Assembly: GCA_900546225.1 (NCBI GenBank) | Contig: URBZ01000003.1 | Location: 17,857 to 81,856, forward strand | Origin: an uncultured Rickettsiales bacterium | Lineage (GTDB): Bacteria; Pseudomonadota; Alphaproteobacteria; Rs-D84 | Length of the DNA: 64,000 nt | Reading direction: 5' to 3' | In this document: in pieces, positions 2,920 through 64,000 of the stretch | Numbering within the stretch: the first letter of the stretch is position 1 | Layout: each line of letters starts with the position of its first letter | Program-made: the position numbers and the translations under genes | The notes under the pieces: model-generated | What the model saw: the letters and a program-made list of their open reading frames with translations, nothing else | The model's database searches: none | What the model was told of the DNA's origin: nothing

Positions 2920-3516
2920 ATGAAACAAAAACTTAAAAAATTCCTGACGCACCTGCGTGATATTGTTATAAAGCCAAAGCGTTATTTTACCAAAATTGTT
3001 GCCGACGGTAATATGGACGAATCCATGTTAAAGGCATTTATTTATGGCCTGATGGGTGGCATTTTGGTGCTGTGCCTGCGTCTGATTGGGGGCGCGACGG
3101 TGACATTGGGCGCGGTATTTACCGCCGTGGTGATTGTGCCCGTGCTGGCGGTGGCACTGCTGTTTGTGATGGGCGGTCTGATGATGCTGGTATCGGAAAT
3201 TACCGGTGGCGAACGCGATTGGGAAATCGCAATCAAGGGGCTGTCGTCGATATTCTTTATGTATCCGGTGATTTTGGTGTTGAACGCATTGGCGTTTAAT
3301 TGCACATCAATTTTGATTATCAGTTTGCTGATTGATTTGTATGTACTGTTCTTGTTCTATAATATCGCGTTGTATTGCATGCACGGGAAAAAAGCCAGTG
3401 TGATATTTGTTATTGCGGTGTTGGCAATGTTTTTGGCCACAGTGTACGCAACCGATTACCGTATCGGCTGGTTTATGTTAAAGAATGCCAGTGCAACATT
3501 GGCATGTGTAATGTAA
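2920..3516 (+). CDS. Yip1-like multi-pass membrane protein (hypothetical)
   Basis: The 198-aa protein has a short soluble N-terminus followed by about five hydrophobic helices. The layout resembles bacterial Yip1/DUF1282 proteins; no catalytic motif was seen. Confidence 0.45.
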   Translation: MKQKLKKFLTHLRDIVIKPKRYFTKIVADGNMDESMLKAFIYGLMGGILVLCLRLIGGATVTLGAVFTAVVIVPVLAVALLFVMGGLMMLVSEITGGERDWEIAIKGLSSIFFMYPVILVLNALAFNCTSILIISLLIDLYVLFLFYNIALYCMHGKKASVIFVIAVLAMFLATVYATDYRIGWFMLKNASATLACVM

Positions 3517-33426: not shown

Positions 33427-34306
33427 ATTTAGTCAGTTTTTCAACCAGTTCGTTCAGTTGCACGCGGGTGGCAAATGATATAACAATCTGGCCCGCACCA
33501 CCACGACGTTCTGATATCTTGGCCTTTGCACCAACGGCATCGGAAATGCGGCGTTCCATATCACGACGGACGTTGTCATCAATCGTTTTATTTGTGTATG
33601 CACGACTGGTGCTGCGACGTGCGCCCTGCTTTACACGTGTGGCCGCGTCCGCCACCGACAGGCCGTTTTGAACAATTTCACGTGCCAATTCAGCTGGATT
33701 TTCCGCAACCGCGATTGTACGTGCATGCGATGCCGACAATTCGCCCGATTTTACCATTTCTTTGACACTGTCTGGCAATGTGCAAATACGCAACATGTTG
33801 CGAATATGACTCTCTGATTTGCCAATCAGGCGCGATACGTCGTCCATGGAATAGCCACACTTTTCCATTATGTTTTTGTATGCGGCGGCCTCTTCTATTG
33901 GGTTCAGGTTTTCACGCTGGACATTTTCAATCAGCGCGATTTCCATTGCATTGCCATCGTCCAATGATTTAACCAATGCGGGAATTTCCGCCAGACCCGC
34001 CATCTTGCTGGCGCGATAACGACGTTCGCCCGCCACAATTTCATACATATACGGGCGATTTGTGACCGCACGCAACAAGATTGGTTGTAATACGCCCTTC
34101 TCCTTTATAGACGCCGCCAAATCCGCCAATTCGGCATCTGTAAACGTCTTGCGCGGCTGGTCAGGGTTTGCGCCAATTTGCGCCAACGGTATTTGTTTGA
34201 CCACCACGCGATCACCACCGGTCAATGCGGTGATATCTGGCACAGATATGCCGATTTCATTTTGCAAATCGGCCAAGCCACGCCCCAATCCAAACTTAGT
34301 TGCCAT
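33425..34306 (-). CDS. parB: Chromosome partitioning protein ParB
   Basis: GLGRGL..L, the ParB box IVAGERRYRA, and an HTH segment. It overlaps the parA end. Confidence 0.9.
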   Translation of the reverse strand: MATKFGLGRGLADLQNEIGISVPDITALTGGDRVVVKQIPLAQIGANPDQPRKTFTDAELADLAASIKEKGVLQPILLRAVTNRPYMYEIVAGERRYRASKMAGLAEIPALVKSLDDGNAMEIALIENVQRENLNPIEEAAAYKNIMEKCGYSMDDVSRLIGKSESHIRNMLRICTLPDSVKEMVKSGELSASHARTIAVAENPAELAREIVQNGLSVADAATRVKQGARRSTSRAYTNKTIDDNVRRDMERRISDAVGAKAKISERRGGAGQIVISFATRVQLNELVEKLTK

Positions 34307-48624: not shown

Positions 48625-49816
48625 TGCTGTTGTCACAAAACCACGGCTGACGTTTATTCGTCGTGCTGGCAAATGGGTTTGGCGTAAAAAATGGTGGATT
48701 ATGATATTGGCCGCCATTGTGTGGGGAATTTTCGCATTGTTCGGTGGTGGCACGCAAAAGGTTGAACCATTGGCCACCATGGAAATCACACGTGGCGAGA
48801 TGCGTCAGGTTGTAACCGCAACCGGCGAAATTCAACCGCTGAACACCGTCAGTGTTGGTTCACAGGTATCGGGCACAATTGAAAAACTGTACGTTGATTT
48901 TAATTCCAAGGTGAAGAAAGGTGACGTCCTGTTGGAAATTGAACCGTCTGTATTACAGGCATCTGTGGACGAAGCCAAGGCATCATTGGTCAGTGCCCAG
49001 TCCCAGCGCAATTATGCAAAGAGCGAATATCAGCGCAACAAGACACTGTACAACGAAGGATTTATTTCCCGCGCAGAAATGGAACAATCCCAGACCACAT
49101 ATGAACAGGCCGAACAATCGGTTAAACGTATGCAATCGCAATATGACCGTGCGGTGACAAATCTGGGGTATGCAACGATTACATCGCCGGTTGATGGCAC
49201 AGTCATCGCGCGCGAGGTTGATGTTGGCCAAACTGTTGCGGCATCGTTCCAAACACCAAATTTGTTCAAAATTGCCGAAGACCTGTCCCAGATGCAAATT
49301 GAAACATCTGTATCAGAGGCAGACATAGGTGTTATCAAAGAAGGGCAGGCCGTCACATTTACGGTTGATGCATATCCAAATCAGACATTTGATGGAACAG
49401 TGCGCCAGATTCGTTTATCGCCAACCACCACATCAAACGTTGTTGTTTATACCGTTGTGATTGATGTTGATAATTCTGACCTGCGTCTGATGCCAGGAAT
49501 GACCGCATTCGTGACAATCGTCGTAACTGAAAAGCACGATGTGTTCAAGGTTCAAAATGCCGCATTAGTGTTGCGTAAATTTGATGGCATTGTTGACAAT
49601 GCAGGCGATGCGACACCAAATGACCACTTGGCAATTCAGCGTGACGGCAAGGTTATTTTAATTCCGTATACCAAAGGTCTGGTCACAGCAACCGAAACAG
49701 AAATTATATCTGACGAATTGCGTGACGGTGACCGTGTGGTTATTGGTCGCACAGGACAAAAGACCGCAAATACCACCAACAGAATGGGTGGCCCTGGCGG
49801 CGGCAGACCAATGTAA
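48599..49816 (+). CDS. Efflux periplasmic adaptor (HlyD/MacA family)
   Basis: TM anchor, lipoyl-like GDVLLEIEP.., coiled-coil region, and ..ITSPVDGTVI.. The SD GGAGGG precedes the ATG. The gene overlaps the tolC-like end by 26 nt. Confidence 0.8.
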   Translation: MKKTQRKNNAVVTKPRLTFIRRAGKWVWRKKWWIMILAAIVWGIFALFGGGTQKVEPLATMEITRGEMRQVVTATGEIQPLNTVSVGSQVSGTIEKLYVDFNSKVKKGDVLLEIEPSVLQASVDEAKASLVSAQSQRNYAKSEYQRNKTLYNEGFISRAEMEQSQTTYEQAEQSVKRMQSQYDRAVTNLGYATITSPVDGTVIAREVDVGQTVAASFQTPNLFKIAEDLSQMQIETSVSEADIGVIKEGQAVTFTVDAYPNQTFDGTVRQIRLSPTTTSNVVVYTVVIDVDNSDLRLMPGMTAFVTIVVTEKHDVFKVQNAALVLRKFDGIVDNAGDATPNDHLAIQRDGKVILIPYTKGLVTATETEIISDELRDGDRVVIGRTGQKTANTTNRMGGPGGGRPM

Positions 49817-58854: not shown

Positions 58855-58930
58855 GCCGGTGTAGCTCAGCTGGTAGAGCATCTCATTCGTAATGAGGGGG
58901 TCGTAGGTTCAAGTCCTATCACCGGCACCA
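58855..58930 (+). tRNA. tRNA-Thr (anticodon CGT)
   Basis: Acceptor GCCGGTG/CACCGGC, D arm GCTC-AGCTGGTA-GAGC, anticodon stem TCTCA/TGAGG with loop TTCGTAA, T arm GTAGG-TTCAAGT-CCTAT, and an encoded CCA. Confidence 0.9.
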
Positions 58931-59460: not shown

Positions 59461-59489
59461 TTGATTTTCTGGCAAATTCATTGTATAAA
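59461..59489 (+). promoter_or_regulatory. Sigma-70-like promoter of the ileS leader
   Basis: TTGATT (59461-66), 17-nt spacer, TATAAA (59484-89), with TG immediately upstream of the -10 element. Confidence 0.5.
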
Positions 59490-59499
59490 TTTGTCCGTA

Positions 59500-59532
59500 A
59501 TGAAACAGACAGCAATAATTATTATTAAATAA
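59500..59532 (+). CDS. Candidate ileS leader peptide MKQTAIIIIK
   Basis: ATG AAA CAG ACA GCA ATA ATT ATT ATT AAA TAA has four consecutive Ile codons. It starts 10 nt after the -10 element with no SD, and a terminator lies 30 nt after the stop. Confidence 0.55.
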   Translation: MKQTAIIIIK

Positions 59533-59561
59533 ACCGGCACTGCGCCTTTGGCGGTGGCTGG

Positions 59562-59585
59562 GGCGCATATGCGCCTGTTTTTTTT
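59562..59585 (+). terminator. ileS leader (attenuator) terminator
   Basis: GGCGC-atat-GCGCC is followed by TG and T8. It ends 37 nt upstream of the ileS ATG, and the ileS SD AGAGGA is at 59608-13. Confidence 0.6.
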
Positions 59586-59622
59586 AATAAAGGCATAAAC
59601 AAGACAAAAGAGGACACAAAAC

Positions 59623-63322: not shown

Positions 63323-63346
63323 GCCGGCAAATGCCGGCCTTTTTTT
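63323..63346. terminator. Bidirectional terminator (CCGGCAAATGCCGG family)
   Basis: GCCGGCAAATGCCGGC is flanked by A7 and T7, between nth and pheT. Confidence 0.75.
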
Positions 63347-64000
63347 ACTTGTCACGAATGCGCGCATTACATGCGGTTTCGACATTTTTGATGACCGCGT
63401 TTTGCAATGCAATCAAATCCGCATCTGACATATTGTCGGTTGGCACGATTGTGATTGCAATCGCAATCGATTTATTGCCGTCCGGCATATTAAACGCATC
63501 GAACACAACCGCATCAGTAATACGCTTGTCCACACTGCGCGCCGCCGACACCAATTTTTCAGCCGGCGTATTGCCATCAACAATAAATGCAAAGTCACGC
63601 GATATTGGTTGGAAATCAGATAACTGAACCTCGCGCTGTTTACGTGGTGCGGGCAGGTTTGCAACATCGTCAACAATCGCCACCATGACGTTTGTCTTGA
63701 TTTTCAACGCACGCGCAACCATTGGTGACAATTCACCAAATTCGGCGATTTTCTTTTTACCCTGATAAATCGCGCCATATCTGAATGGGTGTGCCCATTG
63801 TGGTGCGTTTTCGGTTGAAACCGTGAAACGCTGGCCATGCATCAGTGCAATCAAGTCCGCCTTGACATCATAGATATCATATGCACGATTGCGGCCCGAC
63901 CAATGACGCGGTGCGTTTGCGCCGGCACGAACAATACAAACCTGTGTATGTTGCGCATTTGGCGTATCGCCGTCAAACACCGTGCCCAGTTCAAACATTG
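63345..64000 (-). CDS. pheT: Phenylalanyl-tRNA synthetase beta subunit, C-terminal part (gene continues beyond the window)
   Basis: FELG.VF..., ....DFYD.K..., and the C-terminal FDX-ACB-like domain ..DAVVFD.F......KS.AI..T... The reading frame is open at the window edge. Confidence 0.8.
   Translation of the reverse strand, partial: MFELGTVFDGDTPNAQHTQVCIVRAGANAPRHWSGRNRAYDIYDVKADLIALMHGQRFTVSTENAPQWAHPFRYGAIYQGKKKIAEFGELSPMVARALKIKTNVMVAIVDDVANLPAPRKQREVQLSDFQPISRDFAFIVDGNTPAEKLVSAARSVDKRITDAVVFDAFNMPDGNKSIAIAITIVPTDNMSDADLIALQNAVIKNVETACNARIRDK

Follow-up and report, generated by a model that had tools for sequence, protein, structure and literature searches.

What does a ten-codon open reading frame (ORF) with four consecutive isoleucine codons, followed by an intrinsic terminator, do directly in front of ileS, the gene of isoleucyl-tRNA synthetase (IleRS)? 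The question is raised by a stretch of 64,000 nt from an uncultured Rickettsiales bacterium (Rs-D84; GCA_900546225.1, contig URBZ01000003.1, 17,857-81,856), which we call the window. An earlier note on this DNA had read promoter elements, the leader ORF, a hairpin with T8 and the ileS ATG as parts of an attenuator, and the coordinates it gave for them are all as claimed (Table 1). From sequence comparison and modelled folding we consider it very probable that a ribosome-mediated leader-peptide attenuator couples the transcription of ileS to the supply of charged tRNA-Ile. The window alone is weak ground for this reading: ATHATHATHATH, with its four in-frame-type Ile triplets, has 6 occurrences in the window against 1.4 expected, and the z-score of the leader fold there is -2.06. 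It is the comparison of sequences, not the single sequence, that makes the case strong and takes the arrangement beyond chance.

We compared 80 genome loci obtained by an IleRS protein search (IleRS identity 74-98%), a sample beside which the genome collection holds ~290 further IleRS relatives. Their hosts are all uncultured gut or rumen Alphaproteobacteria, many of them named Candidatus Enterousia; a previous study placed Enterousia in the order Rs-D84 and described its genomes as <1 Mb and without amino-acid biosynthesis (PMC12306168). A further IleRS search for outgroups gave only proteins at least 82% identical, and the genome sample is one within the clade. Conservation counts rest on the 79 of these 80 loci with sufficient upstream DNA, and the leader ORF, the RNA switch and the terminator stand directly 5' of ileS in 79/79. 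As an independent sample, metagenome contigs were scanned with a pattern of the RNA switch only, the Ile run and ileS being kept out of it, which gave 113 matches: 91 with an Ile-run ORF upstream and ileS downstream, 6 interrupted by a contig end, and 16 that lie in GC-rich DNA, have no leader and no ileS, and were rejected as due to chance. No run of another amino acid was present in any of the 113. Real matches to the switch core always came with the Ile run and ileS (the first gene differed only in one GNAT-ileS operon), and the metagenome set reaches lineages in which the N-terminus of IleRS is only 56-62% identical. The earlier note had proposed an alignment of orthologues as a check, and the Ile run, the stop-to-hairpin spacing and the terminator all proved to be conserved.

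Within the leader ORF the pattern of change is that of a coding sequence with a fixed plan. Exactly 10 sense codons were present in 76/80 ORFs, which encode 60 distinct peptides, and the usual pattern among the genome loci is M-x4-IIII-(K/R/G/E/Q)-stop, with an Ile run of three to five codons in 79/79 genome and 91 metagenome loci. Identity across loci is 68% in codons 2-5, 95% in the Ile run and 99% in the start and stop codons. Changes in the run are mostly synonymous (ATA, ATT or ATC, never ATG), and in a few loci one Ile is replaced by a Val, Lys or Met codon or the run has three Ile only. The leader ATG is in frame in 166/173 occurrences, and none of 148 unique upstream segments has an in-frame stop ahead of the Ile run. 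Such fixed frame and length, synonymous change in the run and freedom from in-frame stops point to coding constraint on the leader ORF, which is probably translated. The leader Ile codons are ATA in 34%, ATT in 63% and ATC in 3%, against 14%, 59% and 27% in the long genes of the window. A bias towards ATA and away from ATC would fit selection for Ile codons that are decoded slowly or seldom, and the leader bias gives a hint of it.

Two further observations concern the run itself. Its first codon is almost always ATA in the window and L001-L080 (the L numbers denote the loci compared). Seven divergent loci (L085, L119, L145, L149, L151, L188, L190) keep the 10-codon ORF with three Ile codons at positions 7-9, as in the leader MNNKNKIIIG; the codon after the run is mostly Gly (IIIG), Lys in L119, and their IleRS N-termini are 56-62% identical except that of L149 (~73%).

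Downstream of the ORF, the structured part of the RNA (~50 nt, in a whole unit of ~86 nt) can form three helices: an intrinsic terminator, an antiterminator and an anti-antiterminator that we call helix A (Table 1). The hairpin of the earlier note, GGCGC-ATAT-GCGCC at 59562-75 followed by TG and T8 (59578-85), is present, and so are its duplicated elements TGCGCC (59541-46 and 59570-75), GGCGG (59550-54) and GGCGC (59562-66). The competing TGCGCC:GGCGCA pairing that it derived from them is real (-9.0 kcal/mol) but amounts to the outer end of a longer helix: the antiterminator has 10 bp and takes up the 5' arm of the terminator, 59561-66 being common to both, so that the two are mutually exclusive. 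Its opposition of antiterminator and terminator likewise stands, and needs to be enlarged by helix A, which also competes with the antiterminator. In the window the terminator has an energy of -9.4 to -10.8 kcal/mol, and helix A and the terminator jointly reach -25.0 kcal/mol. Folding of single sequences gave two recurrent states, either helix A together with the terminator or the long antiterminator hairpin; in the latter GCGC(C)UUUGGC (59542-52) pairs with GCUGGGGCGC, and it is the minimum-energy fold in many orthologues. Helix A is not dominant at equilibrium in many orthologues, though it is the first to form in the growing free transcript of the window.

Pairs were counted on a 74-sequence alignment. 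The antiterminator was paired in 95.9% of alignment cells (32-57% in slid controls), the terminator in 97.5% (36-69%), with compensatory changes at two pairs, and helix A, in two registers, in 83.5% (30-52%). In one locus, L066, three columns have changed together: column 74 from C to U, column 51, with which it pairs in the antiterminator, from G to A, and column 84, with which it pairs in the terminator, likewise from G to A. The shared helix arms are 94-96% identical across loci and the loops and flanks 66-81%; we attribute the high arm identity and the sparse covariation to the need for each nucleotide to serve two alternative helices. A consensus from MAFFT and RNAalifold gave the terminator and a 2-bp stub only, because helix A is thrown out of alignment by indels and the arms show hardly any variation, and it was replaced by per-sequence folds and by pair counts on the named structures. 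The minimum-energy fold of the window, which pairs GAAACAGACAG (59501-59511, the 5' end of the ORF) with CUGUUUUUUU (59575-59585, the U tract), was rejected as window-specific and probably spurious, since that part of the ORF varies in the relatives.

The position of the ORF relative to these helices is nearly invariant, the first base of the stop codon lying 11-13 nt 5' of the antiterminator in all 74 genome and all 91 metagenome leaders so measured. Toeprints show that a ribosome covers ~12-15 nt past the first base in its A site. We used this range in masked folding of the 74 genome leaders and of 81 unique metagenome leaders, with the transcript ended just past region 3 of the four overlapping helix regions and the ribosome-covered nucleotides blocked, which is an equilibrium calculation of a decision that is really kinetic. 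In the window the probability of the antiterminator, P(antiterminator), was 0.17 in free RNA, 0.04 with the A site on Ile1-3 and 0.99 with it on Ile4 or Lys; with the ribosome on the stop codon it was 0.74 at edge +12 and 0.0 at edge +15. For the 81 metagenome leaders the median was 0.79 in free RNA, 0.98-0.99 with the A site on the last three sense codons, and, with the ribosome on the stop codon, 0.49 at edge +13 (mean 0.38) and 0.0 at edge +15 (mean 0.01). In full-length RNA the ribosome on the stop codon raised P(terminator) to 0.95-0.99. A series of growing lengths of the window transcript gave helix A first in free RNA, the antiterminator with a ribosome on Ile4 and the terminator with one on the stop codon. 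The masked folding that the earlier note had suggested thus came out in its favour, the antiterminator forming under an Ile stall and the terminator under a ribosome that has reached the stop codon.

From these elements we propose the following sequence of events. Transcription would start a few nt before the leader ATG or, in other lineages, reach the leader by readthrough from tRNA-Thr, and a ribosome would be at work on the 10-codon ORF while RNA polymerase makes the next ~50 nt. When Ile-tRNA is plentiful, the ribosome would arrive at the UAA with its leading edge 12-15 nt past the A site, over GCGC 59542-45; covered in this way, GCGC could not hold the 5' arm of the terminator, and the terminator would form and stop transcription at U8. 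When Ile-tRNA is scarce, the ribosome would stall once its A site has reached Ile codon 3 or 4, masking the base of helix A and leaving 59542-52 free, so that the antiterminator would form once 59557-66 emerges, the terminator could not fold and polymerase would read through into ileS. If the leader is not translated, helix A would form first and the terminator next, which again predicts termination. The ORF, the three pairings and the spacing are conserved in the sequences compared; the kinetic control of folding and the physiological response to isoleucine are what the model would add to them. The synthetase gene would be a sensible target of an isoleucine signal, since the Enterousia lineage is described as having no amino-acid biosynthesis (PMC12306168).

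Table 1. Features of the ileS leader region and its surroundings (positions in the window)
Feature	Position	Strand	Remarks
Promoter-like site TTGATT (-35), 17-nt spacer, TATAAA (-10)	59461-59489	+	9/12; end of -10 is 10 nt 5' of ATG
Leader ORF MKQTAIIIIK and stop	59500-59532	+	ATG AAA CAG ACA GCA ATA ATT ATT ATT AAA TAA; 10 sense codons
Control codons ATA ATT ATT ATT (Ile x4)	59515-59526	+	mostly synonymous variation among loci
Helix A (anti-antiterminator)	59534-59561	+	59534-43 with 59551-55 and 59557-61; -15.6 kcal/mol
Antiterminator hairpin	59542-59566	+	GCGCCUUUGGC (59542-52) with GCUGGGGCGC (59557-66), loop GGUG; -14.8 kcal/mol
Intrinsic terminator	59561-59585	+	59561/2-66 with 59571-75/6, loop AUAU, U8 59578-85; listed by scan
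ileS Shine-Dalgarno GAGGA	59610-59614	+	8 nt before ATG
ileS, type 2 isoleucyl-tRNA synthetase, 1008 aa	59623-62649	+	PF00133, PF08264, PF19302; TIGR00392
tRNA-Thr (CGU)	58855-58930	+	context; own terminator at 58941-58
ORF, 153 aa	58967-59428	-	between tRNA-Thr and leader; no Pfam or NCBIfam match
ORF, 226 aa	58091-58771	-	other flank of tRNA-Thr; no Pfam or NCBIfam match

Where the leader transcript begins can be judged from two groups of loci. Among the 54 loci without an adjacent tRNA, 44 have a promoter-like match (>=8/12), its spacer being 17 nt in almost every case, that ends 7-10 nt 5' of the start codon, and two classes, TTGATT-17-TATAAA and TGGAAA-17-TAAAAT, occur in the window and L009-L080, the former recurring in distant relatives. 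With the -10 element at this distance, only ~0-4 nt would be left for a 5' untranslated region. Transcription of the leader would on this basis start a few nt 5' of the ATG, initiation is probably leaderless or near-leaderless and free of a Shine-Dalgarno sequence, and the promoter spacing suggests that messages of this kind are used in the lineage. As the earlier note had said, little room is left for a promoter after the T-tract: the promoter scan found no promoter-like site in the 37 nt from the U tract to the ileS ATG. In 23 related loci, the 3' end of tRNA-Thr lies 9-16 nt 5' of the leader ATG (L004, L008, L013-L016, L020, L023, L024, L026, L027, L029, L031, L033, L035, L037, L041, L044, L047, L052, L064, L068, L075). 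A promoter cannot fit in 9-16 nt, and therefore leader and ileS should be co-transcribed with tRNA-Thr at these loci, where the terminator of the attenuator would also end the tRNA unit and 3' processing of the tRNA would make the 5' end of the leader. The ancestral order appears to have been mnmG, tRNA-Thr, leader, ileS. In the window the 153-aa ORF looks like an insertion that forced the leader onto its own promoter, as it occupies the place where the tRNA abuts the leader in other lineages.

Further, these observations would allow a more specific picture, in which ~86 nt form a complete attenuator whose 10-codon leader is translated in leaderless or near-leaderless fashion, with its start codon 0-4 nt from the transcription start or 9-16 nt behind tRNA-Thr. 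Taken as a whole we regard this picture as tentative and rather doubtful. For attenuation, translation would then have to begin in the absence of a Shine-Dalgarno sequence, perhaps with 70S ribosomes that bind an AUG at the very 5' end, many lineages would also need co-transcription with the tRNA and its maturation, and the fixed length of the 10-codon ORF would serve as a timing device.

Several findings weigh against a ribosome-mediated attenuator at ileS. No Shine-Dalgarno sequence precedes the leader ATG in the window, and the -10 element TATAAA is without the usually invariant final T. The promoter scan, which requires this T, did not list the site for that reason, and what the earlier note called a good promoter keeps its elements and its spacing (TTGATT-17-TATAAA at 59461-59489) but not that rating. 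Four Ile codons are kept, yet no more than the last one or two stand where a stalled ribosome could act; in the modelling, the idea that a stall on the Ile run frees the antiterminator holds for those codons and not for the run as a whole. Helix A is the least secure of the three helices, being less conserved and present in two registers. Covariation is sparse and the helices are near-invariant, the support consisting mostly of conserved pairing potential. In the free truncated RNA of many orthologues the antiterminator is already favoured (median P 0.77-0.79), so that ribosome-free termination would depend on folding kinetics, and in full-length RNA masking on the late Ile codons cuts P(terminator) only from ~0.85 to ~0.5.

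Some of these points could fit other explanations. Because helix A starts 1 nt after the stop codon, any ribosome that finishes the ORF would melt it, and the leader might be a general sensor of translation, or work with reversed logic, ileS following ribosome availability or growth rate. The untranslated RNA is predicted to terminate, and at the narrowest footprint (edge +12) P(antiterminator) stays as high as 0.74 under a ribosome on the stop codon, both of which suit such a sensor. At edges of +13 to +15, however, the same ribosome removes the antiterminator (mean 0.38 and 0.01), and the invariant spacing of 11-13 nt between stop and antiterminator fits blocking by a terminating ribosome; a general sensor, moreover, leaves conserved Ile codons before an Ile-specific enzyme unexplained, and we think it very improbable. 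T-boxes and the thrS operator are precedents for synthetase genes controlled by other effectors, and the arms, 94-96% identical and so beyond the needs of pairing, could be a binding site for IleRS, uncharged tRNA or a small molecule, the ORF being incidental or an aid to ribosome loading. The double use of the arms in alternative helices would by itself lead one to expect this identity, and the loops vary (71% identity in the terminator loop), with no conserved anticodon-like loop seen in the alignment. A permissive Rfam search found no relevant family at 59500-59590, the T-box being unmatched even at E up to 10, and the sole overlapping matches, all at E >6, are far below threshold (STnc430, 19.5 bits, E 6.4; SCARNA1, 18.1 bits, E 9.3). 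Nor could a T-box be accommodated in a structured RNA of ~50 nt. A switch for another effector would leave unexplained why the ORF has a fixed frame, a fixed length and a fixed place for its stop codon, and we consider it very improbable.

The tRNA-Thr link raises yet another explanation, namely that the hairpin is simply the terminator of the tRNA-Thr unit, the ORF having no function and ileS being reached by leaky readthrough or served by a promoter that escaped recognition. In the 23 loci where the tRNA ends 9-16 nt before the ORF the hairpin would indeed end the tRNA unit. In the window, however, the tRNA has a terminator of its own and a divergent ORF stands between tRNA and leader, and 54 loci have the leader at ileS with no tRNA next to it. 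Nor would a plain terminator have any need of a conserved antiterminator, a 10-codon ORF and a fixed spacing, and among the explanations weighed here we give this one the least chance.

Attenuation by a leader peptide has well-known counterparts with which the ileS leader can be compared. In pheM-pheST of Escherichia coli a Phe-rich short ORF is followed by alternative antiterminator and terminator hairpins before the synthetase gene. The ileS leader resembles it in that a synthetase gene stands behind a short ORF rich in codons for its own amino acid, and differs in the amino acid and the gene, in the absence of any sequence relationship, and in that its ORF, of 10 codons, is shorter than pheM, has no Shine-Dalgarno sequence and is predicted to stand at the 5' end of the RNA or close to it. 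With the ilv, leu, his, thr and trp attenuators it shares the four-region arrangement of overlapping helices and a stop codon placed so that the ribosome blocks the antiterminator, and it may share termination when untranslated; unlike these biosynthetic attenuators, it would regulate a synthetase in a lineage described as lacking the biosynthetic pathway. Unlike the leader families of Rfam (Thr_leader, Leu_leader and others), it matches no model, and the unit is only ~86 nt long. T-boxes at ileS in Firmicutes and Actinobacteria serve the same goal, more IleRS when tRNA-Ile is uncharged; they bind uncharged tRNA directly, are ~200 nt or longer and do not need translation, which sets them apart from the element described here.

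A previous study (Seliverstov et al. 2005, PMC1262725), which cites pheM-pheST as the classical example of a synthetase attenuator, also predicted attenuators in front of the leuS and trpS genes of Streptomyces. Like ours, those are comparative predictions outside the gamma-proteobacteria with leader ORF, antiterminator and terminator; phylum and amino acids differ, and ileS itself in that study carries a T-box that acts on translation rather than a leader peptide (PMC1262725). In Caulobacter crescentus, CCNA_03934, named "ileS leader CDS", is a small translated ORF on the ileS mRNA detected by ribosome profiling (Schrader et al. 2014, PMC4117421). In the passages of that paper concerned with it, CCNA_03934 serves only as a negative control, and they give no sequence, Ile content or mechanism (PMC4117421). 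It resembles the ileS leader in being a small ORF on the ileS mRNA of an alphaproteobacterium. Full-text literature searches brought up no account of an attenuator with Ile codons at ileS, and the only precedent at ileS was this passing mention in Caulobacter; the earlier note, which had no leader-peptide attenuator of ileS to cite, is to be corrected in so far as an "ileS leader CDS" has been named once (PMC4117421). There is a possibility that ileS leader peptides are widespread yet undescribed in Alphaproteobacteria, CCNA_03934 included.

The mechanism is classical and involves no new principle; what would be new is its application to ileS. Isoleucyl-tRNA synthetase would join the synthetases thought to be under leader-peptide attenuation, pheST and, by prediction, leuS and trpS, and a lineage whose genomes are described as <1 Mb and devoid of amino-acid biosynthesis would still keep a dedicated sensor of tRNA-Ile charging. 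What sets the element apart is its small size, the strict 10-codon length, the missing ribosome-binding site and the link with tRNA-Thr. Being tiny, extremely conserved and easily recognised, it could give rise to a new RNA family and would offer a tractable model of attenuation without a leader ribosome-binding site, and it might supply a compact Ile-responsive part for reporters.

Other features of the loci may be added. The TIGR00392 match of ileS in the window scores 755.7 bits against a cut-off of 621.4. In L145, from an activated-sludge contig (2100-5896), the attenuator with leader MVRKNTIIIG is followed by the gene of a 178-aa GNAT acetyltransferase and then by ileS; NCBIfam includes a model for IleRS fused to a GNAT domain, and the pairing of GNAT and IleRS may have a functional meaning. 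At its end the window carries pheT (63345-63998, minus strand), and in related loci rplT is followed by pheS with a GC hairpin between them (in L184 at ~3186-3290 in reverse-complement coordinates). No Phe-run leader was found at pheS in the related loci inspected, and a pheM-type attenuator seems to be absent from this lineage. A scan of the window for mini-ORFs with amino-acid runs and terminators returned only C-terminal ends of ordinary genes, such as MGGPGGGRPM at 49784 and a VVVV ORF at 33540, and the same scan of all 193 loci returned the ileS leader read in a shifted frame (NNNYY) and a Leu run within rplT.

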